Shown piece by piece: positions 1 through 63,227 of a stretch of DNA of 64,000 nt; the stretch's first letter is position 1; each line of letters begins with the position of its first letter. A program made the translations under genes and the position numbers. Origin of the DNA: a virus. The notes beneath the pieces were generated by a model. It worked only from the letters and a program-made list of their open reading frames with translations. It searched no databases and was not told the DNA's origin. Location of the stretch: IMG/VR virus record IMGVR_UViG_3300029267_003532, positions 15,956 to 79,955 of that record; one strand, given 5' to 3'.

Positions 1-276
1 CGCTATCACGGCGCGGACACGTGGATATCTTTCGAGCCGGTGATCTGGCCCTGGGCAACCCTCGAGCTGCTCTCCCTGGCCCAAGGCCTGATCACCCACT
101 GCAAGGTTGGACCGCTGAACTATGCCAACCGCCTGCCGGCGCACCTGCGCGCCCAGGTCCCCGAGGTAGACTGGGTGCAGTTCGCCGATAGCTTCCAGGC
201 GCTATGTGATCGGTACAGGGTCGTGTGCCAGTTCAAGGAAGAACTTTATACCCGGATCGAGGCTGCTATCAAGTAA
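1..276 (+). CDS. Radical SAM (SPL-like) phage protein, C-terminal part; truncated by the window edge
   Basis: Frame is open from position 1 (RYHGADTWISFEPVIWP...KVGPLNY). TWxSxEPVI and KVGxLNY resemble the C-terminus of SPL-like phage radical SAM proteins. Confidence 0.5.
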   Translation, partial: RYHGADTWISFEPVIWPWATLELLSLAQGLITHCKVGPLNYANRLPAHLRAQVPEVDWVQFADSFQALCDRYRVVCQFKEELYTRIEAAIK

Positions 277-293
277 ACGGAGTGATTCCCATT

Positions 294-578
294 ATGAACA
301 CAATCACAATCGTTCCCACTCGCACCTACAACCAAGCCTACACCGGCTATCACCTCTGCTTGCTCTCTATCTTCAAACGCGCCCGCCTGGACTGCGAAAA
401 AGCCTCGCGCAAACACGCCGTCGATGCGCTCTGCTTTCTCTGCAGCGACCGCGCCGAGACTCTCAGCCAATACCTCAACATCACCACCGACGACCTCACC
501 GGCCTGACCCGCCGCTGCTGGCAGCAGGTACGCGAACGCTTCGGCCTCACCCTGGACGATCTGGACAGACCGGACTAG
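294..578 (+). CDS. Hypothetical protein
   Basis: ORF 225..578; likely ATG at 294 after GGAG. Confidence 0.6.
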   Translation: MNTITIVPTRTYNQAYTGYHLCLLSIFKRARLDCEKASRKHAVDALCFLCSDRAETLSQYLNITTDDLTGLTRRCWQQVRERFGLTLDDLDRPD

Positions 579-585
579 TGGCAGG

Positions 586-765
586 TCACTCTTCCTGAGA
601 TCGAATAACGCGAAAGCGGCGTGTAACTGTCTCCAGTGCACGCCGCAATATCAGAGCGACCGCGCCGATGATGATGAATAGTCGACGGCGCTTTTTGTTT
701 TTGGGCTTGGACTCTGAGGAATCTTCGGATACTGGGATGCTGTTGGGTTCCGGCTGGTCTGTCAT
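586..765 (-). CDS. Small (59 aa) membrane-anchored protein, possibly a truncated remnant
   Basis: Read by hand, below the ORF-track cutoff. AGGAGG RBS, then MTDQPEPNS...KNKKRRRLFIIIGAVALILRR...QEE*. Confidence 0.55.
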   Translation of the reverse strand: MTDQPEPNSIPVSEDSSESKPKNKKRRRLFIIIGAVALILRRALETVTRRFRVIRSQEE

Positions 766-801
766 GATGGATGCTCCTCCTGTTATGAATCAAGTCGCTT
801 A

Positions 802-1602
802 TCAGTAACAATACCGCGAGACCTCAGCCCCGCCGGCATCGTACAAATACCCACAGTCGCCCTTGTTATTCCACAGGGCTTGCTCGTTCCCAAAACTCAA
901 CCCGCAAGACTCCGGGTGGCCCTCGTTCGTATACACCCGACACACCTGTCCCGGCTGCAGCTCGATCCCCGGAAACACAAAGTCCTGCCCCGGCGCGCCG
1001 GCGTTCAGACGCCAACCGCCCAGGTTCACCGACGAGCCGCCCTGGTTGGCGATCTCGGCATATTCGTCGCTCTCGACCCGCTTGACCACTCCATCGTAAA
1101 AGATGAACGAGATCACGACCTTGCCGGGGGCTGCTTGTGGCTCCGGGGTGTTTGTCGGCACGGGCGTCGCAGTCGGTATCGCCGTCGCCGTTGCCGCAAT
1201 CGTCGGTACAGGTGTGGCCGTGGGCGGCGGCGTGTTGGTCGGGACCAGCGTCGCGGTGGGCACACTCGTGGGCGTCGACGTCGCAGTTGGCGCCGGCGTG
1301 TTCGTGGGGACGGGCGTCGAGGTGGTTGTCGCTGTAGCAGTCGCAGTGCTGGTTGCCGTCTGGGTGTCCGGGGGCGAGGGCGTAACGGTTGACGTGGCTG
1401 TGCTGACCGGCGTTGGACTGGGCGACGCTGTCGCGGTCTCGGTCGGGATCGGCGTCGACGTCGGCGCGCTCGTGGGCGTCGCTGGCAGCGCGTCCGCATC
1501 CACAGGTAGTGGGGGCAGGGTGGCGATCCGGTTCGCTGTCGGCGACGCGCAGCTGGCCAGCAGGACCAGGGAGAGGGCGAGTAGGGCGAGTGTGCGCTTC
1601 AT
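802..1602 (-). CDS. Lipoprotein with Pro/Thr-rich linker and C-terminal lamin-tail (LTD) domain
   Basis: Lipobox LLASC; long PT(A/N)T repeats; EYAEIAN...LGGWRL...WNNKGD LTD motifs. Confidence 0.85.
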
Positions 1603-1789
1603 GGTTAGAGCAGCCTTTGCACTAGATATCGAACGCCACTATTTTCATTCTACCCTAACTCGTGAAAAAGCACAAAGTCAGCGATCTATTGAGATTATGA
1701 TCATAATGGAAAAGGTCACCGCGACAACGGTGGCCTTCAGATCAAGGACACTCTCGCTGGCGGGGGAGGCCGGCAGCCTGGGGCAGGGT

Positions 1790-2056
1790 CTACTCTCGCT
1801 CGCTCTCAGGCATCTCGTCGGGGTGATCGACCCAGAGCAGGTCGTTCGGGGTGCAGCCGAGGGCATTGCAGATACGGGTGAGGACAGCCAAAGAGATCAT
1901 CTGTTGCTCGTTGGTAGCCATCCGAGAGAGAGTACTGGTTGACACATTGGCTTCTTCGCTGAGCATTCGATAGGTCATTCTGACCCCGCGCCGATCGCCG
2001 GCTAGGGCCATCCTAGAACGTAGTTGAAACCGTGCTTGCCCCATTGTTCCCTCCAT
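1790..2056 (-). CDS. XRE/Cro-C1 HTH repressor (probable immunity repressor)
   Basis: LSEEANVSTSTLSRM...LTRICNALGCTPNDLL; divergent from the early operon. Confidence 0.85.
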   Translation of the reverse strand: MEGTMGQARFQLRSRMALAGDRRGVRMTYRMLSEEANVSTSTLSRMATNEQQMISLAVLTRICNALGCTPNDLLWVDHPDEMPESERE

Positions 2057-2079
2057 AAATCATTTACTATGCTGCGTAT

Positions 2080-2109
2080 AGTATACCACGGAAGACGTTA
2101 CGATGTCAA
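2080..2109 (-). promoter_or_regulatory. Leftward sigma70 promoter for the repressor gene
   Basis: Minus strand TTGACA-N18-TATACT with extended -10 TG. Confidence 0.7.
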
Positions 2110-2160
2110 TACGCTACGCCGTCTAATTGTACGGATTTTCCACATTTAGCAAACTGACCC

Positions 2161-2189
2161 TTGACAGAAAGACCAAGATCGAGTATACT
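2161..2189 (+). promoter_or_regulatory. Rightward sigma70 promoter for the early operon
   Basis: TTGACA-N17-TATACT. Confidence 0.8.
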
Positions 2190-2345
2190 TATATTGAGTA
2201 ATTGATACAACGAAGGAAAACGAAGAGGCGAGGTGCTACGAACACCTCGCCCCGAATGCCAAAACCTACACTCGCGAAAGTCAGGACTCTGGCAGCCTCA
2301 TGATACCACGAGAGGCGGTCAGGGTCAAACAACAGGAGGACCCGA

Positions 2346-2888
2346 ATGCTGACCACAGGCCAGCCGCTGACCGCCAATCAGCAAGCAACGCTAGTTGCCC
2401 TGCAACCCTATCTGACCCGCATTGCGCACAACATCGTGCGCACCCACTACCCCGAGCAAGACGCCGACGAACTGCTCCAAACAATGAACGAAGCCATCTG
2501 CGAGCGAGCCGCCCAGGACCCGACCTTCCTCGACCAGACCCCGGGCTACATCACCCGCGCAGCCGCCTGGGCAGCCCGCAACTACTGCCAGCGCGAGCGC
2601 TTTGGCCACAACCTGGTCCCCCAGTCCCTGGACGCCGAAACCGGCGACGATCACACCCTGGCCGAGACGATCCCCGCGCCCCTCGCCGACCTCGATCTGC
2701 CCCTCGACGTCGCTCGCGCCCTGGCCAGGCTCAGTCGCAAGCGCCAACAGATCGTCGCAATGCTGGCCCAGGGTTTCCAGCGCAAAGAGATCGCCGAGCG
2801 CTTTGGCGTCAAATCGCCCAGCCTCACCTGGGACTTGAACAAGATCAAGACCGTGCTGCAGCCGGTCTACGCAGCGGTGAGGAGGTAA
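2346..2888 (+). CDS. Phage-encoded sigma-70 family (ECF-like) sigma factor
   Basis: Region 2-like DADELLQ...YITRAAAWAARNY; region 4 HTH LSRKRQQIVAM...RKEIAERFGV; AGGAGG RBS. Confidence 0.8.
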   Translation: MLTTGQPLTANQQATLVALQPYLTRIAHNIVRTHYPEQDADELLQTMNEAICERAAQDPTFLDQTPGYITRAAAWAARNYCQRERFGHNLVPQSLDAETGDDHTLAETIPAPLADLDLPLDVARALARLSRKRQQIVAMLAQGFQRKEIAERFGVKSPSLTWDLNKIKTVLQPVYAAVRR

Positions 2889-2892
2889 CACG

Positions 2893-3666
2893 ATGGATCA
2901 AGTCTACACGTTCACCTTTACATTCAAGGCCAACGGCCAGATTCGCAAGCAGACCCGCCGCGTGCCCATCGCCGAACTTTGGCAGAAATTTAACCTCGCC
3001 GCAGACTGGCGCCGCGAGGGCGTGCCCGAGGAGAACCGCAGGTCAGAGGTGTATGGCCCCGGTCTCTCCAAGGTCATCTGCGACGAATACGCGCGCCGGC
3101 GGCTGCGCGAAATCCTCGAACCGCTGGGCCTCGTGCCGATCGAGCCAGAGATCATCGGTCTGCTCTGGGCGCGCCTGGCCGGTGAGGATCGCTATCAGCT
3201 TTACAAAATTCGCAAAGAAACCGTCGAGCTCGAGGGCTACGAGCGCCCGCACCTGATCCACCACGGACTGATTCCCGTCTCCGACGACAAGGTCGACGCG
3301 GCATTCTGGTGGTCCACCGAGAAATGCTGGCGCGACCTGGGGATCTGGATCAACGATAGCCCTGGACTGATCATCATGTCGTACGTGAACACAGTCAAGG
3401 TCGCGCTTCAGGACATCCCTCACATTGTGCCCCAGTTGGCCGACGGACAGGTAATCCGCGCATCCGTCCGCTTTGACTACAAGGGCCGGGCCAATCGCTA
3501 CCCATATATGGTTCCTACCCGGATCAAAACGCGGATCAACGATTTACGCGGCCGCTACCCCAACGCGACTGAGGATCTCGCCGTCGTGCCGACATCGATC
3601 CTGCATGCGTCGTATGGCTATGGATTGCCCTCGGCATTGAGTCCCACACCGGCATTCGCAGGATGA
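2893..3666 (+). CDS. Hypothetical protein
   Basis: 257-aa ORF with GGAGG RBS, coupled to the sigma gene. Confidence 0.7.
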   Translation: MDQVYTFTFTFKANGQIRKQTRRVPIAELWQKFNLAADWRREGVPEENRRSEVYGPGLSKVICDEYARRRLREILEPLGLVPIEPEIIGLLWARLAGEDRYQLYKIRKETVELEGYERPHLIHHGLIPVSDDKVDAAFWWSTEKCWRDLGIWINDSPGLIIMSYVNTVKVALQDIPHIVPQLADGQVIRASVRFDYKGRANRYPYMVPTRIKTRINDLRGRYPNATEDLAVVPTSILHASYGYGLPSALSPTPAFAG

Positions 3667-3755
3667 TATATGGATTCGGATCATAATCCAAATGCCCTTG
3701 CTCTATCTTGCCGTTTTTGGTAAGATAGAGTCACAAACAGAACGGATGTGCTACT

Positions 3756-4469
3756 ATGACAAAACTACTGATCACCAAACTGCAAAAGCGGCCCGATGGC
3801 AACGTCGATCTCTTTGGCCGCGGTCATCGCTACAAAGACACGACCCTATTTGACGTGTCCGATCTCTTTGAGGTGGGCATTGACCCCGCCGATCTCCAGG
3901 TCGGTGTCGAGACGCCATGCCGGTTTTATGCGCACTGTGTCGCGTCTTCAAAACTGAACAAGAGCGGAAATCCTTACCTAAACGTCGAATACCTGGAGGC
4001 TGTTTCCAACGGCAACGGCAACGGCAACGGCCACCAGGCCGCGCCCGCCGGCGAACTGAACAGCGCCATTTTGGATGAGCTGCGCGCTGTTCACGGCGAA
4101 CTGACTCAAATGCGCCGGCTGCTCAACCGTGCGTTTGTGGGGCAGGTCATCGACCCGCCGCTCGTAACGGATGACGACCCAACCGAACCGCCCACGGGTG
4201 AGGGAGATAACGACCTCGACGATCCTGACGACGTCCCACGCCCACCTGCTACCAGTGCCCAGCCACTCAGCGACGATCAGGCGCGACGCAACTTTTCCAG
4301 CCTGGCCGGGCCGGCGATCCGCGAGGGCCAAGTCACGTCGGAGGAGGTCAATGAACTGGTCAAAGGTGCTATCGCCACAGGTTGGCGCGACGCGCTCGTC
4401 GAACTGCAGGCGCTGATTGCGCAGGCTGAGAGTGAGCAGGAACGCGAACTCGTTGCAGTTTATCCCTAA
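3756..4469 (+). CDS. Hypothetical protein (acidic linker, NG repeats)
   Basis: 237-aa ORF; possible own promoter TTGCTC-N17-TAAGAT at 3698-3726. Confidence 0.7.
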   Translation: MTKLLITKLQKRPDGNVDLFGRGHRYKDTTLFDVSDLFEVGIDPADLQVGVETPCRFYAHCVASSKLNKSGNPYLNVEYLEAVSNGNGNGNGHQAAPAGELNSAILDELRAVHGELTQMRRLLNRAFVGQVIDPPLVTDDDPTEPPTGEGDNDLDDPDDVPRPPATSAQPLSDDQARRNFSSLAGPAIREGQVTSEEVNELVKGAIATGWRDALVELQALIAQAESEQERELVAVYP

Positions 4470-4496
4470 TTTTCATCGCCCTCATTTGTTATATAG
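4464..4496 (+). promoter_or_regulatory. Putative phage-sigma promoter, copy 1
   Basis: CCCTAATTTT-N10-ATTTGTTATATAG. Confidence 0.7.
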
Positions 4497-4504
4497 ACAC
4501 AACA

Positions 4505-4647
4505 CCTACCCGGTCCGAGACGCGGACTGACCACCGAATCCCCCAGGGTGGGACCGAGGTACAAGCCAGCAAACGCTGGACAACCTGACTGGCCACGAGC
4601 GCGGATTGGACGGCGAGATGACGGAGACCAACGACGGACCGGGTAGG
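4505..4647 (+). ncRNA. Putative structured leader or ncRNA
   Basis: Perfect 13-bp terminal stem (4505-4517 with 4635-4647) enclosing internal hairpins; non-coding and directly downstream of promoter copy 1. Confidence 0.5.
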
Positions 4648-4661
4648 GGAAAGGGGCTTCA

Positions 4662-4952
4662 ATGCTCATCATCCAATCTGCATGTGCCGAACTGATTGTT
4701 AACGTCAAAGACGATGGCTTGACCGACATCGACATGGGTCAGGCTATCACGGCCGCAACCGACTACGTCGCCCAACAATTTCCCGGCGAGGATTGGAAAC
4801 CAGTCGACGTCCAACTCGTCAACTATGATCGCGTTCGGGTCTACTATCGTCGTCCGTTTACCGGAGAGTCCGACCTGGATGAAATCAACGCCCACTATGC
4901 CCGACTGGCTCGTGTGGGCGACTGCTGCCCGCCCGCTCTGGAGCCTGCATAG
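4662..4952 (+). CDS. Hypothetical protein
   Basis: 96-aa ORF with AAGGGG RBS. Confidence 0.65.
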   Translation: MLIIQSACAELIVNVKDDGLTDIDMGQAITAATDYVAQQFPGEDWKPVDVQLVNYDRVRVYYRRPFTGESDLDEINAHYARLARVGDCCPPALEPA

Positions 4953-4961: not shown

Positions 4962-5597
4962 ATGAAACTTCAAGTTGCACACATCAATCCATCCTCCTAC
5001 GTCGACGGCCCCGGCCAGCGTGCCGTCCTCTACCTGGCCGGCTGCCCGATCCGCTGCCCTGGCTGCCAGTCCCCGTATCTCTGGGACGAGAATGCCGGCG
5101 CCGCAACGGACGTCGACCAAGTGGCCGCCTGCCTGCTCGACACCGGTCTGCCGATCACCATCTCCGGCGGCGAGCCCTTCGCCCAGGCACCCGCCGTGGC
5201 CGAGTTACTCGTCGATCTGCGCATCCAGCAGCCCGACCTGCACATCATCGTCTACACCGGCTTTGTGGTCGAAGACATTCTCGACGCCATAGCTCCCGCG
5301 ATGCCCGAAGCGTGGGTTATCCTCCACGCCGCCAACGTCCTCGTCGACGGTCCGTTCCAACCCGAGGACGACCACGACCAGGTGCAGTGGCGCGGCTCCA
5401 GTAACCAGCGTCCCATCGACCTGCGCGCGACGTGGGAGCGAGCCTGGCGTTCCCTGGCCCTACTGGACTGGGATGCGCAGACCCTGACGATCACCGCAGA
5501 CGGCGACCTGCTCGGCGCCGCCGGCACGATGGACGACCTATTCGGATCACCAGCCCTGGTCCCCACGCGTATGTGCGGCCAGGTCAGAACAATCTAG
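4962..5597 (+). CDS. NrdG-like radical SAM 4Fe-4S protein
   Basis: CPIRCPGC (CxxxCxxC), ISGGEPF, LVDGPF, WRGSSNQR. Confidence 0.85.
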   Translation: MKLQVAHINPSSYVDGPGQRAVLYLAGCPIRCPGCQSPYLWDENAGAATDVDQVAACLLDTGLPITISGGEPFAQAPAVAELLVDLRIQQPDLHIIVYTGFVVEDILDAIAPAMPEAWVILHAANVLVDGPFQPEDDHDQVQWRGSSNQRPIDLRATWERAWRSLALLDWDAQTLTITADGDLLGAAGTMDDLFGSPALVPTRMCGQVRTI

Positions 5598-5754: not shown

Positions 5755-7053
5755 GTGAGCGTCAAAATCGAGGACAACCCGATGGACACAGCCCAAGTTA
5801 TTGCCGAAGCCAAGAGCATTATCAACCAGCGCCGCCGCGAGGCCGCCGAGCGGATGGGGGTGGACGAAAGCAAGGTCCAAACGCACCGCATCGAGCTACG
5901 TCGGCTCCGCGAGGCCGGTCTCCTGATTGACCTCGACATCCACGGCGTCTCGATGTTCAGCGTTCGCACGACCTACGCAGAGCTGGGCATCGGCGCAGAG
6001 GACGTCCGTGCCAAGCGGATGCGGGCAGGTACCAAGGACCTCTTTCCAGAATACAGCAAAAAGCTGCGCTCCCTCGAGGGCCGCGCGCGCCAGAACCTCG
6101 CCAAGCATTCACACTCGATCCCGGCCTTCGGCCAGTACCGGTGGCTTCCGTGGACAGCTTACCAGGCTTACTCGGACAAACACACCCAGATACTCGCCGA
6201 GCTCGATGCGACCAAGGCGGAATTGCTCGCCAAGTACGACGAGTTGCGCGAGGAAAACCGCGCCTACTTTGAGCAGGTCGCCCTGCGCGCCTGGCAGGAC
6301 CTGCGCGCCGGATTCTCATATCCGGACAGCGGCATGATCGTTACCACCGATCATACCGAGTTTGGCCCCGGCGAAGAGGGCAAGTTCGTCGAATACGTGG
6401 TTCAAAAAGTCCTTGGCCGGATGCCTCTCCCGGACGAAATCCGCGACGGCGTGCGCATCGACTACAAGACCTCGATTCTCTACTCCGAGGCCGAGATCGC
6501 CGCCGACCAGTCCGCGCTCGAACAGGCTGAGGCCGAGTACGCGCAGGCCCGGTTTCAGCACGCGCAAGCCGAACAGGCTGCCTTCGACGTCCACCTCCAA
6601 GAGCGCGAGGCCGAGGGCCAAGTCCAAGCTCGCATCGCTGCCTATCGCCGGGCCGAGCTCGAGCACGCGCGCCAACAGCTCGCCGAGATGGGCAGCCCCA
6701 TCCAGGACGCCCTCGACGGCCTGCGTGCCAACTTGTACGACGCTGTACGCACGCTGCTGGCCGGCCTGCGCAAGAACACCACGTTTCGCGGCAAAGCCGG
6801 CTCCAAGGCCGCCGACCTGTATGCGTACTGGCACAAGTTGAACGGGGGACTGCTCCACGATGCCGACTTGGAGCAAGCCCTGGCCGCCTTGGACGGCGAG
6901 ATGAAGTCCTACCAGGTCGCCGACAAAGACGCCCGGCAGACGCAGATCGGCGACATCGAGACCCAACTCGCCGAGATCGCCGCCCTGACCGCCGAATCCG
7001 CGCGCAAGATTCGCAGCGAGTCGGGCAGCAGAGCTTCGGTCCTGGAATTGTAG
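5755..7053 (+). CDS. Helical coiled-coil protein (DUF3150-like), ends in SRASVLEL
   Basis: 432-aa ORF, AGGAG RBS, alpha-helical. The DUF3150 resemblance is tentative. Confidence 0.7.
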   Translation: MSVKIEDNPMDTAQVIAEAKSIINQRRREAAERMGVDESKVQTHRIELRRLREAGLLIDLDIHGVSMFSVRTTYAELGIGAEDVRAKRMRAGTKDLFPEYSKKLRSLEGRARQNLAKHSHSIPAFGQYRWLPWTAYQAYSDKHTQILAELDATKAELLAKYDELREENRAYFEQVALRAWQDLRAGFSYPDSGMIVTTDHTEFGPGEEGKFVEYVVQKVLGRMPLPDEIRDGVRIDYKTSILYSEAEIAADQSALEQAEAEYAQARFQHAQAEQAAFDVHLQEREAEGQVQARIAAYRRAELEHARQQLAEMGSPIQDALDGLRANLYDAVRTLLAGLRKNTTFRGKAGSKAADLYAYWHKLNGGLLHDADLEQALAALDGEMKSYQVADKDARQTQIGDIETQLAEIAALTAESARKIRSESGSRASVLEL

Positions 7054-7055
7054 CG

Positions 7056-7376
7056 ATGATGATCGTATTACGCAACACGACCAGCCGCAAGGACGCGGTG
7101 TACATCATTGAGGTGGACGAGGACAACCAAAAGGTGGCCGGTTGGTGGGGGCGCTGGGACACGTACCAAGCCCACGGCCTGGCTGGCCTGCGCAGTCAGA
7201 TGAAATGGGACGGGCCATCCTATCAGAACGCGGCGGACAAGCTGCTGCGCCAAAAGCTAGAAAAAGGATATGTCCCCGTCGATCAACTGCCGGCATCTGT
7301 GTCGACGCCCGCGGCGCCCGATCCTAACCCGCCATCGCCCCGCCCGCGTTCACGGGCGGCAATGCTGGAGCTATAG
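7056..7376 (+). CDS. WGR-domain protein, ends in SRAAMLEL
   Basis: WWGRW motif and KLLRQKLEKGY, typical of WGR domains. Confidence 0.75.
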   Translation: MMIVLRNTTSRKDAVYIIEVDEDNQKVAGWWGRWDTYQAHGLAGLRSQMKWDGPSYQNAADKLLRQKLEKGYVPVDQLPASVSTPAAPDPNPPSPRPRSRAAMLEL

Positions 7377-7922
7377 ATGTCAAACCTGGTACAGCTTGAT
7401 TTCCTGACAATGATCCACTTGCCTCCTGTATGGACAGCGCCAATTCCCAGTGGATACGGACATTGGTGCTGTCCTCATTGTCACGATGCCGCCAGGGGAT
7501 TTGAAGCCCCTTTATCGTTCCCTGCCACAAACAATCGCCAAATAGGTCAGTGCCGAACCTGTAACTATGAACATCACTTCAGCCTGCTTTATGGTCAAAC
7601 TCCAAACGGGTATCCTGAGACGCGCATGGATTTAGAGCAGGCCCATATCGCAGCTCACATTCGAACCGGGTTCCCCAAGATTTGCCCGGCTGGTCACGCG
7701 AATCCCGTTTGTATGGCAAATTGTGAGTCGTGTCCGCACCATCAAGCTGACGCGCGCTTGCACTGGCGCTGTAACCATCCGGCTTATCAAAAAGCGATTG
7801 GTGTACATTGGTGTCTAGGTTGTGGTATGGAACTTGGCCCTTGGGCAGAGGCTCATAATTGGCATTACTGCGGTGGGCCAACCAACCAATGCATGAGAGA
7901 TTGGGAGATAACAAATGGATGA
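7377..7922 (+). CDS. Cys-rich (zinc-finger) hypothetical protein
   Basis: Several CxxC pairs. Confidence 0.6.
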   Translation: MSNLVQLDFLTMIHLPPVWTAPIPSGYGHWCCPHCHDAARGFEAPLSFPATNNRQIGQCRTCNYEHHFSLLYGQTPNGYPETRMDLEQAHIAAHIRTGFPKICPAGHANPVCMANCESCPHHQADARLHWRCNHPAYQKAIGVHWCLGCGMELGPWAEAHNWHYCGGPTNQCMRDWEITNG

Positions 7923-8115
7923 ACGCACTCGCAACCGATTTGCCGCCAAGTTTGGTCTGCCTGCTGGACAGGTCCGAACGTTCGACGCGTTGACCGCGCA
8001 CGAAAAAGAGGACGTGCGCCGCTACTACTCCCTCTACAATGCACGACACTATGTCTACGCCATCAAGCGCGCTGGCGGATTGGTCGTGAAACGGTTCCGG
8101 CTCAATACCGCTTAG
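7915..8115 (+). CDS. Hypothetical protein
   Basis: 66-aa ORF with GGAG RBS. Confidence 0.6.
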   Translation: MDERTRNRFAAKFGLPAGQVRTFDALTAHEKEDVRRYYSLYNARHYVYAIKRAGGLVVKRFRLNTA

Positions 8116-8134
8116 GATCATAATCCAAATCTAT

Positions 8135-8167
8135 CCCTAATTTCTAGCCTTCCCGTTTGTTATATAG
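8135..8167 (+). promoter_or_regulatory. Putative phage-sigma promoter, copy 3
   Basis: CCCTAATTTC-N10-GTTTGTTATATAG. Confidence 0.7.
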
Positions 8168-8191
8168 GTACAACTACAGGAGGGACAAACG

Positions 8192-9766
8192 ATGAACGTG
8201 AACAAACTGACCGCCATTCAACAAGCTGACGTCTTTATCCGCGCTCGCTACCCTGGGCTCTTTATCCGCTCGCAAGAGGAAGCGCGGGTCGAATCGGCCA
8301 TTCGCGGCCTACTCGCGACCGGCAAGCACGCCCACAAGGAGGTCTTGACCTGGACCATCAGCCGGGGTGTGCGCCTGGCCGACGCGCCGGCAGAGGAATA
8401 CGGGCCAACCGATCCGATCAGCGCCCTGCAGTGGTTCGCCGGTTATGGCGTCACCGAGGAAAAGCCCGCCGGCACACCGGCGGTCGCCATCTTCAAGGAC
8501 CTCGATCCCTATTTCCAAGACCCCCGCGTTGTTCGCGCTCTGCGCGACCTGATCGCCGACATCACCAGCACCCAGCGCACGCTGATCGTCATTTCCCCAA
8601 CACCCAACGTGCCCGAATCCTGCAAGCGCCAGGTTGCCATGATCGACTGGGCGCTTCCCACGGTCGACGAGCTGGCCGGCATGCTGGGCGACTTTATCGC
8701 CGACCTGCCTGACCGCGTACAATGCGACCTGAACGGCGACAAGGAGCAGGTTGCCAAGGCACTCTGCGGCCTCACCTGGTTTCAGGCCCAGTCGGTACTC
8801 GCCACCGCCGTGATTGCCACCGGCAAGCTGGACGGGGCTGCAATCGAGTTCATCATTTCGGAAAAAGCGCGCCTTGTCCGTGAATCCGGGCTCCTCGAGT
8901 TCTACCTGCCCGACAACCTGCCCGACATCGGCGGCCTGGATGAACTCAAAACCTACATCTCGCGTAGGCGCCGCTCTTTCACGGACAAGGCCCGCGACTA
9001 TGGCGTACCCACGCCCAAGGGCTTGCTCCTTGTCGGCGTGCCCGGCTGCGGCAAATCGCTGGCCTGCAAGTCACTCTCCAAGCTCTGGCGGCTGCCCCTG
9101 GTCCGCCTCGACGTCGGCGCGCTAATGGGCTCCCTGGTCGGCCAGTCAGAGGCCAACCTCCGCCAGGCGCTGCAAGTCGCCGAGTCATCCAGCCCCTGTA
9201 TCCTCTGGCTGGACGAGATTGAAAAGGGCCTCGCCGGCGTCAAGTCGAGTGGGCAAACCGATGGCGGGACCACCGCCCGCGTTTTTGGCGCGCTGCTCAC
9301 CTGGCTCCAGGAAAAGACCGCGCCGGTTTACATGGTCGCAACCAGCAACGACATCAGCGCGCTGCCGGCAGAGCTGCTGCGCGCCGGACGTTTCGACGAG
9401 ACCTTTTTCGTAGACCTGCCCAACACGCAGGAACGCCGAGAGATTTGGACCATCCACGTCGCCAAAGCCGGCCGCAATCCGGCCAACTTTGACCTCGAGG
9501 CCTTGGTCCAGGCCAGCGACGGCTATACAGGTGCAGAGATCGAAGCCGCAGTCGGCGACGCTTTGATCGCCGGTTTTGACCAGGATCGCGAGATCACTAC
9601 CGGCGACCTGGTCACAGCCATTGCGGGCCGCGTGCCCCTGACCGAGACGATGGACACGCAGATCAACGCCCTGCGCAAATGGGCTGCCCGGCGCGCCAAG
9701 CCGGCCAGCAGCGCCCAAGCCGGCCAGGCCGAGTCCAAGAGCCGCGCCGCGACACTCGACTTATAG
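8192..9766 (+). CDS. Ycf46-like AAA+ ATPase, ends in SRAATLDL
   Basis: Walker A GVPGCGKS, Walker B ILWLDEIEK, SRH ELLRAGRFD; degenerate N-terminal AAA domain (ARYP..EE.R, FKDLD). Confidence 0.9.
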   Translation: MNVNKLTAIQQADVFIRARYPGLFIRSQEEARVESAIRGLLATGKHAHKEVLTWTISRGVRLADAPAEEYGPTDPISALQWFAGYGVTEEKPAGTPAVAIFKDLDPYFQDPRVVRALRDLIADITSTQRTLIVISPTPNVPESCKRQVAMIDWALPTVDELAGMLGDFIADLPDRVQCDLNGDKEQVAKALCGLTWFQAQSVLATAVIATGKLDGAAIEFIISEKARLVRESGLLEFYLPDNLPDIGGLDELKTYISRRRRSFTDKARDYGVPTPKGLLLVGVPGCGKSLACKSLSKLWRLPLVRLDVGALMGSLVGQSEANLRQALQVAESSSPCILWLDEIEKGLAGVKSSGQTDGGTTARVFGALLTWLQEKTAPVYMVATSNDISALPAELLRAGRFDETFFVDLPNTQERREIWTIHVAKAGRNPANFDLEALVQASDGYTGAEIEAAVGDALIAGFDQDREITTGDLVTAIAGRVPLTETMDTQINALRKWAARRAKPASSAQAGQAESKSRAATLDL

Positions 9767-9770: not shown

Positions 9771-9803
9771 CCCTAATTTTTGGTCTGCCCATTTGTTATA
9801 TGG
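9771..9803 (+). promoter_or_regulatory. Putative phage-sigma promoter, copy 4, within a 14-bp inverted repeat
   Basis: CCCTAATTTT-N10-ATTTGTTATATGG. Confidence 0.7.
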
Positions 9804-9827
9804 GCAGACCAAACCAAGGAGGATAAC

Positions 9828-10235
9828 GTGAGCAAATATCGGAAACTCAAGACCAAATTCACCAGCCGCGTGCACCTGCGCGAGGCGCTCCAAGCCACCG
9901 GCTTGCCTTTCGAAGAGGCCCGGCCTGGTCAGGCCCTGACCCTCAACGGATACGGCGGGCAGCGGCGCGAAGCGACCTTTGTAGTCCGCAAGCGGGCGCT
10001 GGGCGCACGATACGGCGACTTTGGCTGGCAGTGGGATCCCGCGACCAAGGGTTTTACTCAGATTGAGGATGATCTCGACGCCGGCCATCTGCCCGTTCAG
10101 CAGAACCTGCAGGCCATCAAGCGCGAGTATGCCTACGCTGCGACCGTGACACAGGCGAGGGTAAAGGGCTACCAGATTCGTCGCATCGACCTGCCGTCAG
10201 GCGAGATTCAAATCCAGGTTACAGGGAGGATCTAA
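9828..10235 (+). CDS. DUF1257-like protein
   Basis: GTG start after AGGAGG; SKYRKLKTKF...LREAL, YGDFG, and YA...ARVKGY pattern; adjacent to the Ycf46-like ATPase. Confidence 0.75.
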   Translation: MSKYRKLKTKFTSRVHLREALQATGLPFEEARPGQALTLNGYGGQRREATFVVRKRALGARYGDFGWQWDPATKGFTQIEDDLDAGHLPVQQNLQAIKREYAYAATVTQARVKGYQIRRIDLPSGEIQIQVTGRI

Positions 10236-11821: not shown

Positions 11822-11936
11822 TCGAAACTTTGGCCCGTTGGATTGACTGGCTCTACCAGTGGCAAGAACGCCGGCGACTGCGCCGGTTTGAGCGGGATCT
11901 GGATGGGTGGATCGCGGAGATGGGGATCGAGGACTG

Positions 11937-13475
11937 ATGAGTACCTACATCACCGTAACCGATATGTTCTGCGGCGCGGGAGGCAGCTCTCAAGGCGCCT
12001 TCTCTGCCGGCGCTGAAGTCAAGATGGCCGCCAATCACTGGCAGCTTGCCATCGAGACGCACAACACAAACTACCCGACCGTCGATCATGACTGCGCCGA
12101 TGTCAACCAGGTCATGCCCAGTCGCTGGCCCACCACGACAATGCTGTGGGCCTCGCCGGAATGTCCGCATCACTCCATCGCCTCTGGGCGCAAGCGAGCC
12201 AGCAAGCAGCGTTCCTTTTTCGACAAGTCGAACGATCCCGCCGCCGTGCGATCCCGTGCCACAATGTGGGATGTGCCACGATTCGCCGAATACCACGACT
12301 ATCAGGCCATCATCGTCGAGAATGTCGTCGAGGTCCGCAAGTGGAGGCTCTTTGACGCCTGGCTCCATGCAATGCGCCTCCTGGACTATGACTACAAACT
12401 ATGCTATTTCAACAGCCAATTCTTTGGCGTGCCGCAGAGCCGCGACCGCTTCTACGGTGTGTTCTGGAAAACAGGCGGCAAGGCACCGGATCTCGACTAT
12501 CGCCCCAAGGCCTGGTGCGCACAGTGCGAGCGTGAAGTCGAGGCCGTGCAAGCCTGGAAGAAAATCGACTATCATTGGGGCCGCTATGGTCCACGCCGGC
12601 AGTACCTTTACCGCTGTCCGATCTGCGCCGAGGTCATCCAACCGTTCTACGCCCCGGCCTTTGTTGCCATCGACTGGCAGGACCAAGGCACACGTATCGG
12701 TGATCGCAAGCGACCGCTCAAGCCACGCACGATGGAGCGGATCCAACGAGGCATCGAGGAATACGGCCACCAGTACCTGATGATCGAGACGGCCTACACT
12801 AACTCCCAATCCCGGCGTGCGCATCCGGCCTCTGAGCCCCTGGTCACACAAACCGCGCGTCAAACCCTCGGCGTTACGATGCCGCTTGTGACCTCAGTCA
12901 ACTACTACGATGACCGGGCCAGGCCGGCCAGCGACCCGTTGCCCACGCAGACCACTGCCGAAAAGCAAGCCATCACTATCCCGCCCTCGGCCATCGTCGT
13001 CCTGCGCCAACACACCGATCACAGGTCTCCAGCAGAGCCACTGACTACCATCACGGCCGGCGGGAACAATCACGCCTTGCTACGCATGCCCTTCTTGGCT
13101 GTCAACTATAGCCCTGGCCACTGTCGATCGATCACCCAGGAACTGAGCTGTATCACTACTATAGATCATCACGCTCTGGTTGTCCCAGAGCCGTTCATTG
13201 TCAATTACTACGGCCGGAGTTTTACCATACCGGTAGGCCAGGCGCTGTCTACCATCCCGACCATAGCGCACCACGGCTTGGTGCAATACGAGACGCCGCG
13301 CGTGGAAGACTGCTGCTTTCGAATGCTTCGCCCGGACGAAATCGGCAGGGGCATGGCATTTGATCACGACTACATTGTTCTGGGCAACAAACGGCAGCAG
13401 GTGCGCCAATACGGTAACGCTGTCACGCCGCCGGTTGCGCAGTTTCTATTCAAGAAGGTAATGGAGGTCCTGTAG
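11937..13475 (+). CDS. DNA (cytosine-5) methyltransferase
   Basis: DMFCGAGG, SPEC, ENV, QSRDR, GNAV motifs; long repeated variable region. Confidence 0.92.
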   Translation: MSTYITVTDMFCGAGGSSQGAFSAGAEVKMAANHWQLAIETHNTNYPTVDHDCADVNQVMPSRWPTTTMLWASPECPHHSIASGRKRASKQRSFFDKSNDPAAVRSRATMWDVPRFAEYHDYQAIIVENVVEVRKWRLFDAWLHAMRLLDYDYKLCYFNSQFFGVPQSRDRFYGVFWKTGGKAPDLDYRPKAWCAQCEREVEAVQAWKKIDYHWGRYGPRRQYLYRCPICAEVIQPFYAPAFVAIDWQDQGTRIGDRKRPLKPRTMERIQRGIEEYGHQYLMIETAYTNSQSRRAHPASEPLVTQTARQTLGVTMPLVTSVNYYDDRARPASDPLPTQTTAEKQAITIPPSAIVVLRQHTDHRSPAEPLTTITAGGNNHALLRMPFLAVNYSPGHCRSITQELSCITTIDHHALVVPEPFIVNYYGRSFTIPVGQALSTIPTIAHHGLVQYETPRVEDCCFRMLRPDEIGRGMAFDHDYIVLGNKRQQVRQYGNAVTPPVAQFLFKKVMEVL

Positions 13476-15000: not shown

Positions 15001-15432
15001 ATGACTGAGCATCCAGAAAACGTACTTTCAATCCCACCTACATCAGACGGCTTTTACTTTTGCTTATGGGAAGCCATCCGCGTTGACATGGGCGTTGTCT
15101 ATGAAGACGCGGTAGGGCTCGGAAAGGTTACAGAGCGGTACCGCTTGGCACGTGCAGGCCGGCAGCCCTGTCCACTGGCCGAGACCTGCAAGACCCGCGC
15201 GCGCCATCTCGCACGCATCTCCAATCGCCAAACATCCACAATCTGGGCAACATTGACCAAGTCGGAACGCAAGCGACTCTCCAATAAAACCCAGGATCTT
15301 GTATTCGAGGCCGAGTCTCGTATCGGCGCATACATCCTAGGCCCGATGATCAAAACCTGGTTGGAGCAAAACACGGGCACCTTGCTGGGGGTCCGAATAC
15401 GTCATTTGTTGGACAGCCACACGGTACACTAA
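15001..15432 (+). CDS. Hypothetical protein
   Basis: 143-aa ORF in operon. Confidence 0.55.
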   Translation: MTEHPENVLSIPPTSDGFYFCLWEAIRVDMGVVYEDAVGLGKVTERYRLARAGRQPCPLAETCKTRARHLARISNRQTSTIWATLTKSERKRLSNKTQDLVFEAESRIGAYILGPMIKTWLEQNTGTLLGVRIRHLLDSHTVH

Positions 15433-15447
15433 TCTGGGAGAACGCCA

Positions 15448-15822
15448 ATGCCCTGGTGGAACGACACACAAACCTACTATCAATGGCCGGCGCTGCACTT
15501 CCCGATCCACACGCGCCAAATGGAAATCGAGTACCTTGCGATCAAGTGCGCCGGTTGCGGCAAACCCATCCGCTACCTGCACGGCCAAGGCACAGAGCAT
15601 TCACAATGCACAACCGTGCGCTGCGCCGGCCTCTGTCCGTCCTGCAAACTGATCACCTACGCCCAATTTCGTGTGTACGCAGACCACATTCTCTGGGAAA
15701 GCAGCCGTGGCTGGCGCTGGCTTGCAATGCGAAAAGAACCACCGGTCCGGGCATGGTGGGCGCTAGGGCTGCTAATACTGGCCCTGCTGCTAGGAATGCT
15801 GTGCACCCGCCTGGGTGTCTAG
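15448..15822 (+). CDS. Zn-binding protein with C-terminal transmembrane helix
   Basis: CAGC, CPSC; hydrophobic C-terminus. Confidence 0.55.
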   Translation: MPWWNDTQTYYQWPALHFPIHTRQMEIEYLAIKCAGCGKPIRYLHGQGTEHSQCTTVRCAGLCPSCKLITYAQFRVYADHILWESSRGWRWLAMRKEPPVRAWWALGLLILALLLGMLCTRLGV

Positions 15823-15847
15823 CTACACATAATCAACGGAGGATTGT

Positions 15848-16132
15848 ATGTCCGAGTACCTGGAGACCCACCCAGACGTACCCGTCTGGCCGGTCGTCAT
15901 TCGTGACGGCAAAGTCTACGTCAACACCGATGGCCTACTGCGTCACATGGTAGACCTGGACAAAGCCACACCGCAAACGTGGCAGCGCATCTACACGATC
16001 TCTATCGCGCCACGCGCCGTGCACCTGATGACCGCGCGCCTCAAAAGCGGCGACTCGATGCAGATACGCCGAGAAATGTACAAACTGATCGACCGTGCTG
16101 CTCAAACAGAATATCATCCAGAGACAGAGTAG
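15848..16132 (+). CDS. Hypothetical protein
   Basis: GGAGG RBS, 94 aa. Confidence 0.6.
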   Translation: MSEYLETHPDVPVWPVVIRDGKVYVNTDGLLRHMVDLDKATPQTWQRIYTISIAPRAVHLMTARLKSGDSMQIRREMYKLIDRAAQTEYHPETE

Positions 16133-16271
16133 GGGAGTACACTACGACACACAAGCCCGCTCTTTATATCTCTATGTCTTATAAGCGACCTTATGCGACA
16201 TAGACAAAATGCTCCCAAACTGGGACCGGTGACTACTCCCCTGCCCCAAAATCACACAAACAGGTAGGCCA

Positions 16272-17729
16272 ATGAACCCGTTCTGGCAAACCGACAACAT
16301 CACACTCTACTGCGGCCACGTCCTCGACGTCCTCCAGGCCCTGCAGGCAGAATCTGTACACAGCATCATAACCAGTCCGCCGTACTGGGCATTGCGTGAC
16401 TATGCGCTGCCGCCTGTGGAATGGACTGCCGTTTCCTACGTACCCATCGTCGGCCTGCCTGAAATTAACGTACCGGCTTGGCGCGGCTCCTTCGGCCTCG
16501 AACCCATACCCGAAATGTTCATCGGTCACCTGGTCCTCATCTGGCGTGAGCTGCACCGCGTCCTGCGCGCTGACGGCACCTGCTGGCTCAACCTGGGAGA
16601 CACCTACTCCCAAGACACAAAGTGGGGCGGCAAATCCAGCCACAAGAACGCCCACTCGTGCGCCGGCGGTTATGCGACCGCGCGAAACCTACGAACGCAA
16701 ACCAGACTCAAATCAAAAAACCTCTGTGCCATCCCCTGGCGCGTCGCCCTGGCGCTCCAGGCAGACGGCTGGTATCTCCGCAGCGCCCCGCCGTGGATCA
16801 AACCCAACTGCCAGCCAGAGAGCGTCACCGACCGCGCCACCACCGCGCACGAATACTGGTTCCAGTTCTCCAAATCCAAGCGTTACTACTGGGACCCCAC
16901 CGCCGTGCGCGTCCAATCCGGCAATGGCTGGCATGGCGGGACATTCACAAACGAGCGCAAGCAGCAAACCCAGCCCGGCCTCGGCCACGGTCCCCGTAAC
17001 GAGCGCCCAGGCCGCAATCGTCGCACCTCCGATACCTGGAATGAAAGTCTCGATGCCCGGATCGCCGACTACCGCGCCTACCTTGCGCACCTCGAACACA
17101 TTCGCGACCATGGCGGCCTGCTCCTCGACGAGGTCGGCGATCCCCTGGGGTTGATGTTTTCCACGCGTGGCTACAAAGGCACCCACTTTGCCACATTCAA
17201 CGGCGCACTGATCGAGCCAATGATCAAGGCCAGTACTTCGGGCCGTGGCTGCTGCCCCCAATGCGGCGCGCCCTGGGAGAGGGTAACAGACCGCGAGTTT
17301 ATCCCGCAGCCTGACGTCAGTGTCGCAAAGGGCATAAAAGGCAACAGTTCGCAAAAACCAATGGATCAATCCAGCAATTGGGACGGCTTTCCTCGAGGCA
17401 CGGTGGCAATCACCACCATCGGCTTCCGCCCTACCTGCGCCTGCTACGACCACCTCTACCGTGCTCTACCCCAGGCCCACTCCCCGCGCAAGCGTCACCA
17501 GCGCCAAATCTCTGGCAACTGGTGGAAGCGCGCTCGTCGCCACCCTGGACTGAGCGACTGGCCCGTTGAACCCTGCATCGTCCTCGATCCCTTTGCTGGC
17601 GCGGGTACAACCGGACTAGAATGCATCCGCCTTGGTCGGCGTGTCGTCCTGATCGACCTCAGCGAGGAATATTGCCGTGATCACATTGTACCCCGCCTTT
17701 CCGCCCCCATTCAGCCCATCCTCTTCTAA
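16272..17729 (+). CDS. DNA amino-methyltransferase (N4C/N6A, beta class)
   Basis: TSPPY, WLNLGD, HFATF, DPFAGAGTT; Zn-ribbon insertion. Confidence 0.9.
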   Translation: MNPFWQTDNITLYCGHVLDVLQALQAESVHSIITSPPYWALRDYALPPVEWTAVSYVPIVGLPEINVPAWRGSFGLEPIPEMFIGHLVLIWRELHRVLRADGTCWLNLGDTYSQDTKWGGKSSHKNAHSCAGGYATARNLRTQTRLKSKNLCAIPWRVALALQADGWYLRSAPPWIKPNCQPESVTDRATTAHEYWFQFSKSKRYYWDPTAVRVQSGNGWHGGTFTNERKQQTQPGLGHGPRNERPGRNRRTSDTWNESLDARIADYRAYLAHLEHIRDHGGLLLDEVGDPLGLMFSTRGYKGTHFATFNGALIEPMIKASTSGRGCCPQCGAPWERVTDREFIPQPDVSVAKGIKGNSSQKPMDQSSNWDGFPRGTVAITTIGFRPTCACYDHLYRALPQAHSPRKRHQRQISGNWWKRARRHPGLSDWPVEPCIVLDPFAGAGTTGLECIRLGRRVVLIDLSEEYCRDHIVPRLSAPIQPILF

Positions 17730-17730
17730 C

Positions 17731-17780
17731 ACAAAAACGCCCCTTCATTGCCATTAGGATCATAATCACAATGGAGGGGC
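17731..17780 (-). terminator. Terminator between the convergent early and late regions
   Basis: GCCCCTTCATTG/CAATGGAGGGGC stem with a T-tract on the minus strand. Confidence 0.6.
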
Positions 17781-17804
17781 GCACCATGTATCACGCAACA
17801 CGCA

Positions 17805-19559: not shown

Positions 19560-19572
19560 TCAGCCAGCCTTT

Positions 19573-19896
19573 CTACGTCTCGGCTATGATAATGAAATAG
19601 TCCTCAAACGTGTTCCCTCCAACCGTGTATTGAATCTCAACTCGATATCGATGACTGGCGGTCAACGATCCAATACGCGGCAGCGTGATCACATCGCCAA
19701 CAACCGATGCAGCACCATCCTCTAGGACTTCATCCGTAACATCCACCCAATCATCCACAGATGTTTTAAGCATGTCGTACACGACAACGGTTATATTCGT
19801 CGGAGATGACCCGTTTGCTGTTGTTGTGTCAGAGTATGCGAGTGATTCATCTATGCCCTGACGAACCTTGTCTAAAAGTCGAATTCCACCACTCAT
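19573..19896 (-). CDS. Small virion/tail adaptor-like protein
   Basis: Beta-rich 107 aa; ATGA overlap with the upstream tail gene. Confidence 0.55.
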   Translation of the reverse strand: MSGGIRLLDKVRQGIDESLAYSDTTTANGSSPTNITVVVYDMLKTSVDDWVDVTDEVLEDGAASVVGDVITLPRIGSLTASHRYRVEIQYTVGGNTFEDYFIIIAET

Positions 19897-60361: not shown

Positions 60362-60779
60362 CTGCTATCACGATCTCTCCATCTTTACCCGTACCCTCGA
60401 CCGTATGTCGCATCGGCTTTTCGGTGCCCAGCAGCTTGGCCTCCAGCGCCATGTTGAGCCGGACTTCGGTCCAATCCTTCTCTCCCCAAGCCGCTCGCCG
60501 TGCCTCCCGCAATTCGGCCACTTGCCGGCCGCACAACGCATTTGTGTCATCAATAGCCATCTGCTGCCACTGCTTACGCAACGCCGTCAAGTCACGACTC
60601 AACGTCGACTTGTCGTACGGCTTGCCGTTGGCTGGATTGACCAGCCCTGCTCCGTGAGGTGATGGCAGAGGCAACCGCTCCTCGATCTCGTGCAGCGTGA
60701 GCCCACGCAGATACAACCGCGCGACCCACAGCCGACGGTATTCAATTCTGGCTTTGTCGCTTGTCGTCCAGCGGGCCAC
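60198..60779 (-). CDS. Terminase small subunit
   Basis: HTH (LYLRGLTLHEI...STLSRDL), AKLLG, GKDG; upstream of terL. Confidence 0.75.
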   Translation of the reverse strand: MARWTTSDKARIEYRRLWVARLYLRGLTLHEIEERLPLPSPHGAGLVNPANGKPYDKSTLSRDLTALRKQWQQMAIDDTNALCGRQVAELREARRAAWGEKDWTEVRLNMALEAKLLGTEKPMRHTVEGTGKDGEIVIADGLTDEQRLAQLVAVLDRARERRDLGADPVPRADDSTADENVSSVGGAAPSHTE

Positions 60780-60911
60780 TATTGCACTCCATGCGATGCA
60801 ATCTTAAATCTGTGCCAGATTTCAAACTGAGCCTTGACTTCCGGCCAACACAGAGCTATGATGCAGTCAGAAACAAACAATAACACGAATGACACAATCG
60901 GAGACAGTACA

Positions 60912-62519: not shown

Positions 62520-62619
62520 TGTGGACTTGGCTCCCTATTACGGTTAGGATCATAATCTGAATGGTTCAGAACGCATCTAGCCCGGCTCTATCTGACCGGG
62601 CTAGACCTTGGATCACCAA

Positions 62620-63135: not shown

Positions 63136-63189
63136 GCCTACCTCCTAGTGCCCCCCCAACCATTAAAGCTGACAGAAAATGTCAGCTTT

Positions 63190-63219: not shown

Positions 63220-63227
63220 GGGAAATT

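Follow-up and report, generated by a model that had tools for sequence, protein, structure and literature searches.

The 64,000-nucleotide stretch analysed here (the window; positions 15,956 to 79,955 of IMG/VR record IMGVR_UViG_3300029267_003532) is part of a single 79,955-bp virus contig from an uncultured phage, with a CheckV completeness of 92%. Three neighbouring open reading frames (ORFs) on its plus strand, coding for a largely helical protein of 432 amino acids (aa), a WGR-like protein of 106 aa and a Ycf46-type AAA+ ATPase of 524 aa, end in variants of one C-terminal tag (GSRASVLEL, RSRAAMLEL and KSRAATLDL, with the preceding residue included), each followed directly by a stop codon. 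We suggest that this tag, SRAxxL[ED]L, is the lineage's own spelling of a tail that is widespread among Ycf46-type ATPases, and that it docks or addresses its carriers to a single site encoded in the genome, most likely on the ATPase ring, so that tagged proteins would be gathered at a p97-like remodeller. We put the probability of this reading, spelling and docking taken jointly, at roughly 55%.

The tag is real, conserved and non-random. A preliminary description of this DNA had noted it in the three genes, and its sequence, position and restriction to these proteins proved to be as given there: the whole contig has 1549 stop-to-stop ORFs of 30 aa or more, of which only six end in L[ED]L, and SRA lies upstream in just these three. 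Given the amino-acid composition of the phage, SRAxxL[ED]L has a probability of 4e-7 at any one C-terminus, and 5e-5 such endings would be expected among the 119 called genes. The codons for Ser-Arg-Ala differ between the copies as claimed (AGC AGA GCT, TCA CGG GCG and AGC CGC GCC), and the 24-nt stretches coding for the tags agree pairwise at only 11–14 of 24 bases, compared with 5–6 of eight residues, so that the likeness lies at the peptide level and does not reflect a DNA repeat. The common TAG stop codon is uninformative, as TAG ends 43% of the phage's genes. Outside the tail the three carriers are mutually unrelated (BLASTP E > 1), and each tag follows an unstructured or low-complexity linker, which is Pro-rich and ~30 aa long in the 106-aa protein, ~17 aa long in the ATPase (PASSAQAGQAESK) and, in the 432-aa protein, reduced to the few residues RSESG that follow a helix. 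A methyltransferase at 11907–13475 was considered as a fourth carrier, as its ending, KKVMEVL, matches a loose form of the motif; it was excluded, because these residues come directly after a conserved GNAVTPP block, with no linker, and are more readily taken as part of the fold.

Retention in orthologues, on which the preliminary description had made its claim depend, was found. A search for relatives of the 432-aa protein among 5.8 billion proteins returned 28; of the 27 full-length ones, 26 (at 47–91% identity) end in [ST]RAxxL[ED][LFI], while the linker before the tag varies. An alignment of these 26 orthologues shows no variation at A427 and almost none at R426, L430 and E431, compared with an identity of 58% in the average column. 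For the 106-aa protein a single distant relative was found (P0030, 32% identity). It ends in SRAAMLEF, and its linker is ~50 residues longer than that of the window's WGR-like protein. These comparisons point to purifying selection acting on the tail and not on the linker.

In two related phages the tag is carried by the same three kinds of protein as in the window. One of them (L185) has it on a DUF3150-like protein (SRAAALEF), a 124-aa WGR-like protein (SRAAALEL) and the ATPase (SRASTLDL). The other (L189) has it on a DUF3150-like protein (SRASALEL) and on a 402-aa protein with two or three WGR-like segments (SRASSLEL), together with a 176-aa weakly WGR-like protein ending in SRAAHLET and an ATPase ending in RTAALDA. 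The closest relative (L183, ATPase 84% identical) has no WGR gene at all, and there the stop codon of the DUF3150-like gene abuts the gene for a Cys/His-rich protein; the WGR gene of the window can therefore be interpreted as a gene-sized insertion that arrived together with its tag.

The ATPase consists of a degenerate D1-like domain (residues 1–240), a D2 domain that is active by its motifs, the linker and the tag. It retains K288 of Walker A, D341/E342 of Walker B and the residues at the arginine-finger positions; G285, G287, K288, S289, D341 and E342 are invariant among 131 ATPase sequences, and the domain has the defining features of an AAA domain. By sequence this domain is nearest to D2 of p97/Cdc48/NVL/Afg2, and in tblastn searches the protein is 41–47% identical over residues ~10–510 to cellular relatives, including cyanobacterial Ycf46-type genes. 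An AlphaFold2 model built with 131 relatives (predicted local distance difference test, pLDDT, 93) was matched by Foldseek to the D1-D2 tandem of p97/NVL/Rix7/Afg2 over ~570 columns, with template modelling (TM) scores of 0.65–0.73. From this D1-D2 alignment the N-terminal 240 residues are a degenerate AAA domain without a P-loop. The protein is a classical-clade AAA+ ATPase of p97-like fold and protein-remodelling type.

Further to that, the tail is not a peculiarity of this phage. In the 172 loci with ATPase relatives that were examined (92 from IMG/VR and 80 from GTDB genomes, with genes called by a simple rule based on GC content at third codon positions, GC3), the ATPase ends in hydrophobic-[DE]-hydrophobic in 46 of 85 non-redundant viral and 37 of 75 cellular relatives, most commonly in the form R-x(1-3)-hydrophobic-[DE]-hydrophobic. 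Many phages have GRALDL, RTLDL or RAIDL; cyanobacterial relatives end in QR[ML]EF and archaeal ones in ELDIEL or QIDIEI. A group of jumbo-phage ATPases encoded beside DnaC/DnaB ends in E[DE][DE][DE]L, and those of Armatimonadota and some Chloroflexi are tail-less, stopping right after a conserved RARPAS.

The spelling is specific to the genome, and it recurs on unrelated proteins next to the motor. At L006/L008 the ATPase ends in GRRIDA, a DUF3150 protein in GRVIDIE, a YpsA/DprA-like SLOG protein in GRIIDIED and a 184-aa protein in GRVITL. Elsewhere KRIVE[LV] ends three proteins (L011), GRAIEV and GRVIELD occur together (L012), and other loci use [KR]FAA[VI]E[IV] (L016/L023), ERNID[IL], in one case on an HhH protein (L029), or R[TA][IL]E[IL] (L044). 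The largest set, [DSTN]R[FLMVA]x[IM]LDL on nine ORFs, is found at L080, and L060 and L063 have five tagged ORFs each; this jumbo-phage form, x-R-[FA]-x-[IM]-L-D-L, has an eight-residue layout identical to that of SRAxxL[ED]L. Across loci, the similarity of client tails (BLOSUM sum) is 27.2 within a locus and 13.9 between loci (permutation p <= 0.0005). The share of ORFs that match a generic tail pattern is 4.0% where a viral locus has a tailed ATPase and 1.9% in the remaining viral loci; for cellular loci with a non-matching ATPase it is 0.9%. A genome-specific spelling common to the ATPase and its neighbours is the pattern predicted by a docking or addressing code with a co-evolving receptor.

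At several of these loci the surroundings are of interest in their own right. In the 350-kb IMG/VR phage L080, eight of the nine tagged ORFs lie inside 15068–21038 and the ninth at 3442–3774; L060 (16078–18284) and L063 (17123–20726) likewise have runs of small adjacent ORFs without a family match, all ending in [DSTN]R[FLMVA]x[IM]LDL. The run of L080 lies a few kb from an ATPase ending in AKDLDL, and DUF2997 is encoded >100 kb away in the same records. In an uncultured archaeon (L111, 11536–15621), genes for a Mre11-like phosphoesterase and a Rad50/SbcC-like protein directly follow a trio of DUF1257, DUF2997 and ATPase, and the Rad50-like protein ends in RFEKLEI, close to the ATPase end ELDIEL. 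The cluster O mycobacteriophage Corndog (L197, NC_004685.1, 56.8–60.1 kb) encodes the ATPase gp96 (RVLDL), gp95 (ALDFEEVV) and a 113-aa protein (HSHDGGQTWH), and this trio recurs in many actinophage-like IMG/VR loci (L046, L057, L061, L066 and L068).

The mechanism that we propose is as follows. Partner proteins, in this phage a DUF3150-like and a WGR-like one, have received the same peptide, and the tag carriers would compete for, or gather at, one site encoded by the same genome. This site would most likely be located on the ATPase ring, either in D1, the degenerate domain, or in a groove between subunits. The tail of the ATPase itself might act as a resident or weak ligand that is displaced by clients, and the tag would thus define which proteins the p97-like ATPase meets and remodels. 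The preliminary description had read the tag as a docking or targeting code for a common receptor; peptide-level conservation, retention in orthologues, the family-wide tail and the genome-specific spellings all speak for this, and from them we infer that the tag binds, where it binds and that remodelling is the outcome. We would also tentatively extend this proposal, although the extension may well fail: a C-terminal address code that differs from genome to genome might determine which clients are served by a p97-like unfoldase that occurs in phages, plasmids, cyanobacteria/plastids and archaea, with the motor's own tail as a competitor and with phage clients that are mainly DNA-bound, to be loaded or extracted. 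Action on DNA-bound proteins is speculation, suggested by clients and neighbours that are recurrently DNA-related.

We place the reading site on the ATPase ring because the ATPase is the sole component present in every tail-bearing system; the ring itself would accordingly be the best receptor candidate, and DUF1257 and DUF2997, which adjoin the ATPase in the window, appear less likely. In the complete genome of Corndog (69,777 bp), with both gp96 and gp95 tailed, Pfam models find no DUF1257 or DUF2997, and the same holds for three IMG/VR phages with the tail that are 98–100% complete. DUF1257, the only family searched for there, was not found in two incomplete Chloroflexi metagenome-assembled genomes with a tailed ATPase (L112 and L169), in which the tail is common to the ATPase (GLRQME[LI]) and the next gene (GLI[KQ]LE[LI]D). 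Among genomes with a tail-less ATPase, three of five encode DUF1257 elsewhere, and the phyletic pattern is not clean. Two further candidates were rejected: the gp95-like and gp93-like neighbours of Corndog-type loci as divergent DUF1257 or DUF2997 (hhalign against both families was negative), and Hsp70 as the receptor in Chloroflexi (the downstream protein in L112/L169 is an Ig-like repeat protein). Prediction of a complex of ATPase residues 1–505, DUF1257, DUF2997 and the last 37 residues of the WGR-like protein, run without controls, gave interaction prediction scores from aligned errors (ipSAE) of 0.25 and 0.31 against a mark of 0.32, and counts neither for nor against binding. The charge of the tail shows no significant correlation with the net charge of DUF1257, DUF2997 or D1; the most acidic D1 domains do occur with the two most basic tails, but this is anecdotal, and in the charge-switch columns of the clade with "EEDDL" tails K/R gains and D/E gains both fall mostly in D1.

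Several observations weigh against docking on the ATPase ring. DUF1257 is encoded within 10 kb of the ATPase in 29 of 37 loci with tailed cellular ATPases and in 0 of 14 tail-less ones, which favours DUF1257 over the ATPase as the reader of the tail, although these loci are not independent, as cyanobacteria make up most of them. A comparison of tailed and tail-less ATPases brings out only three differing columns (284, 358 and 476) and no decayed surface or pocket, contrary to what would be expected had a tail pocket on the ATPase been lost, and in the AlphaFold2 model the ATPase tail is a free-looking helix (pLDDT 65–70) with no confident docking in cis. In the jumbo phages the clients carry a better version of the tail (DRFDILDL) than the ATPase does (AKDLDL). 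Finally, because the gene calls are heuristic and GC3-based, some of the listed clients may not be genes.

A first alternative takes the tail as a degron-like handle, i.e. an unstructured initiation site at which the pore of the ATPase itself, or of a host unfoldase such as ClpX, ClpA or Lon, would begin to unfold or extract tagged proteins, with the ATPase's own tail serving self-limitation or turnover. The tag does sit at the extreme C-terminus after a flexible linker, like ssrA, and the motor is a Cdc48/p97-type unfoldase by sequence and fold, with Walker A/B and arginine finger kept. However, its pore-loop-1 position reads SLVG, lacking the aromatic residue of strongly threading AAA rings, and a motor bearing its own degron would be unusual. 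Spellings that change from genome to genome but keep a fixed Arg together with an acidic residue resemble recognition by a groove more than engagement by a pore, and a conserved host protease needs no differing spellings in related phages. We consider this explanation unlikely.

Replication proteins are known to share C-terminal tails that bind the clamp or the polymerase, and the receptor could similarly be a host or universal component (the sliding clamp, the substrate-binding domain of Hsp70, SSB partners or the membrane), with the ATPase merely using the same address. This would fit the DNA-related character of clients and neighbours: the WGR-like protein here, the HhH protein of L029, the DprA/YpsA-SLOG proteins of L006/L011, DnaC/DnaB beside the acidic-tailed ATPases, the Mre11/Rad50-like proteins of the archaeal L111, and Ku and ParB in Corndog. 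The tag, however, has neither the Gln nor the terminal Phe of the clamp motif QL[SD]LF, which in its other form, QLxLxL, likewise begins with Gln and may end in Leu: the Gln position is V/M/T in the window and A/S/G/N/T in orthologues, and nothing follows L-[ED]-L. Spellings differ sharply among phages, while clamps and DnaK are highly conserved, and the tail is kept in cyanobacterial and archaeal relatives, the archaeal clamp being different. General scans of the phage's genes, which included no dedicated clamp search, turned up no clamp or polymerase family. A host receptor thus strikes us as rather improbable.

It is also conceivable that no separate receptor exists, and that the six tails of a hexameric ATPase form homotypic mini-zippers with the same peptide on other proteins. 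The predicted helicity of the tail would suit such contacts, which would account for the tag on the ATPase and for the covariation of spelling within genomes without any identifiable receptor. Eight residues are very short for a stable contact, however, and the jumbo-phage ATPase tail is a truncated client tail, which makes such pairing a poor prospect. The weakest explanation, that an enzyme encoded in the module (here the NrdG-like radical SAM activase) modifies the tail, with the ATPase presenting or unfolding tagged proteins for it, draws on an activase that is an orphan in this phage (NrdD was not found in the 92% complete contig) and recurs in nine other lineages, and on the near-invariant Asp/Glu of the tag (the methylthiotransferase RimO modifies an Asp), and we hold it least probable of all, given that most tailed loci have no radical SAM gene within 10 kb, that the activase accompanies DUF1257 rather than the tail, and that a tag without Gly cannot be a glycyl-radical site. 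An encapsulin-type cargo peptide was set aside, as the same tail ends cyanobacterial and archaeal ATPases of this type.

The other genes of the module are listed in Table 1. What had been described as a coiled-coil protein is largely helical, and its identity is probably that of a DUF3150-like (PF11348) protein: Pfam gives no match at E 0.01, whereas hhalign against the Pfam-positive DUF3150 protein of L006 gives E 2.3e-4 (probability 45%, 101 columns), and comparison with DUF3150 clusters gives an Atlas feature score of 0.93 and TM scores of 0.58/0.73. The designation of the 106-aa protein as a WGR protein is better softened to WGR-like, as its PF05406 match covers residues 6–76 (profile positions 8–76 of 79) and includes WGR-like W-W-G-R and K-G-Y elements, while the score stays below threshold (E 0.12, 13 bits against 22). 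The Cys/His-rich protein has a 67% identical orthologue in L183 and no family match in profile searches.

Table 1. Tagged and neighbouring genes of the window, the three tag copies, and NrdG-like activase genes near ATPase relatives at other loci (L numbers)
Feature	Position	Strand	Basis or remark
NrdG-like glycyl-radical-enzyme activase (radical SAM)	4962..5597	+	PF13353/PF04055
DUF3150-like, largely helical protein, 432 aa, tagged	5755..7053	+	hhalign, Atlas, TM; probable assignment
Tag copy 1, SRASVLEL, then TAG	7027..7050	+	ORF end
WGR-like protein, 106 aa, Pro-rich linker, tagged	7056..7376	+	PF05406 sub-threshold
Tag copy 2, SRAAMLEL, then TAG	7350..7373	+	ORF end
Cys/His-rich protein, 181 aa, untagged	7377..7922	+	14 Cys, 16 His, four CxxC pairs
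Small protein, 66 aa, untagged	7915..8115	+	conserved in L001/L183
Ycf46-type AAA+ ATPase, 524 aa	8192..9766	+	PF00004 5.6e-28; PF17862 2.1e-6; phrog_8638 2.3e-138, residues 10-518
Tag copy 3, SRAATLDL, then TAG	9740..9763	+	ORF end; helix 512-523 predicted, pLDDT 65-70
DUF1257 (Ycf35-like) protein	9828..10235	+	PF06868 2.6e-9
DUF2997 protein, 73 aa	10235..10456	+	PF11211 1.1e-5; family-invariant G14, C29
NrdG-like activase elsewhere	L029:9351-9941		
NrdG-like activase elsewhere	L020:8291-8935		
NrdG-like activase elsewhere	L009:7384-8016		
NrdG-like activase elsewhere	L077:12285-12875		
NrdG-like activase elsewhere	L048:7910-8437		
NrdG-like activase elsewhere	L111:15634-16206		
NrdG-like activase elsewhere	L090:8253-9110		
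NrdG-like activase elsewhere	L030:10906-11478		

The NrdG-like activase scores 104 bits against TIGR02491, short of the cut-off of 126. In the nine other lineages such a gene lies 0.6–5.7 kb from a Ycf46-type ATPase, nearly always together with DUF1257, and it is probably an accessory part of the module. For the DUF1257 gene, the true start is most likely GTG 9828, which was chosen because of the strong AAGGAGG site before it and because the family start is MSH[FY] in the alignment, nearly all DUF1257 proteins beginning M-S-H-[FY]. The DUF1257 fold has no Foldseek match at E <= 0.001, and by VIA-align it is weakly like the KA1/AMPK alpha C-terminal domain at Z 5–6, below the level at which a shared fold can safely be claimed. 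In DUF2997 proteins one Gly and a single Cys never vary, both within the block [KR]-G-[FYIV]-x-G-x-x-C, which, as a speculation, loosely recalls glycyl-radical sites and is notable given the activase encoded in the same module. Between the ATPase stop codon and the DUF1257 ribosome-binding site lies a hairpin (9781–9815) with a perfect 14-bp stem (GGTCTGCCCATTTG / CAAATGGGCAGACC), a 7-nt loop and a free energy of -27.8 kcal/mol; it is not a canonical terminator, as no T-run follows, and its role may be to adjust how much ATPase is made relative to DUF1257, or to serve in transcript processing.

Elsewhere the contig encodes an integrase, a partition protein, an FtsK-like protein, a replication initiator and several DNA methyltransferases, which places the module in the early/DNA region of a temperate-looking tailed phage. 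Positions 1–4758 of the contig match window positions 59606–64000 at 77–87% identity, with a ParB-domain/DNA-methyltransferase gene pair at each end, reflecting either a diverged duplication or a circularly permuted genome, assembled around its ends from the reads of two strains.

The genes for Ycf46 and Ycf35 are conserved in cyanobacteria and plastids, and many phages and plasmids carry homologues of them. A genome-specific tail common to the motor and to a changing set of proteins offers a way to read the client list of such a machine from sequence, and cluster O mycobacteriophages such as Corndog provide a cultured, genetically tractable carrier of the tailed ATPase. New in the present analysis are the spelling kept in orthologues, the insertion of a WGR gene with its tag, the Corndog carrier and the complete tailed phages without Pfam-detectable DUF1257/DUF2997. 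If the address code is real, new clients could be recruited just by acquiring eight codons, and the code would amount to a compact orthogonal tagging system that brings proteins to an ATP-driven remodeller, a prokaryotic counterpart of peptide addressing by the MIT-interacting motif (MIM) or peroxisomal targeting signal 1 (PTS1). No description of the tail or of the module's mechanism was found in the full-text literature on the module families and on phage AAA+ targeting peptides, and in the literature searched the tag is indeed previously undescribed, as had been suggested.

Of the known systems to which the tag had been likened, ssrA is not a close one: ssrA is added by tmRNA, ends in LAA-COOH and is read by ClpX/ClpA, whereas the tags here are encoded in frame by the genes themselves and end in L[ED]L. 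The analogy with HbYX fails on the Tyr, as the penultimate residue is Glu or Asp in the three copies and in 27 orthologues. HbYX (PAN/Rpt/Cdc48/Blm10) and GQYL (mycobacterial Mpa and Bpa) are C-terminal peptides that plug unrelated proteins into the same partner pockets, and in broader terms these proteasome-activator tails are similar to the phage tag in being extreme C-terminal peptides carried by an AAA+ ring and also by unrelated proteins. Besides the penultimate Asp/Glu, the phage system differs in that no 20S-like partner was recognised, in that the spelling varies by genome, and in that the carriers are many and changeable, with up to nine per jumbo-phage locus. Acidic tails, such as E. 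coli SSB (DDDIPF) and T7 gp2.5/gp4 binding gp5, also put one acidic-hydrophobic ending on unrelated proteins of the same genome, which thereby reach a common receptor, and the "EEDDL" spelling of the jumbo-phage ATPases beside DnaC/DnaB, E[DE][DE][DE]L, resembles them. The tags of the window, in contrast, combine just one acidic residue with a conserved Arg-Ala; there is no evident partner of the polymerase or SSB type, and one carrier is an AAA+ unfoldase.

Similar in logic are short motifs by which unrelated adaptors dock on one site of an unfoldase, as in the XB tail of SspB and other ClpX adaptors or the VIM, VBM and SHP motifs of p97 partners; the nearest solved relatives of the phage ATPase, by sequence and fold, are p97, NVL and Afg2. 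In those systems the motor itself lacks the motif, and dedicated N-domain receptors are present that are absent here. With MIT-MIM docking on Vps4/CdvC the phage system shares several clients that carry a short Leu/Arg C-terminal motif on a linker and a single AAA+ remodeller; the phage tail is predicted to be helical, and MIM is a helix of ESCRT-III subunits that docks on the AAA N-domain. Yet the eight-residue tag falls outside the MIM1 pattern (D/E)xxLxxRLxxL(K/R), the phage ATPase has no MIT domain, its N-terminal half being a degenerate AAA domain and not a three-helix MIT bundle, the motor itself is tagged, and the clients are mutually unrelated. Related by descent is the Ycf46/Ycf35/DUF2997 set of cyanobacteria and plastids, for which the literature searched yielded no biochemical mechanism and no mention of a tail: the ATPase, DUF1257 and DUF2997 of the window are homologous to it and the cyanobacterial tail QR[ML]EF is related, while here the set is borne by a phage and accompanied by DUF3150-like, WGR-like and NrdG-like genes.

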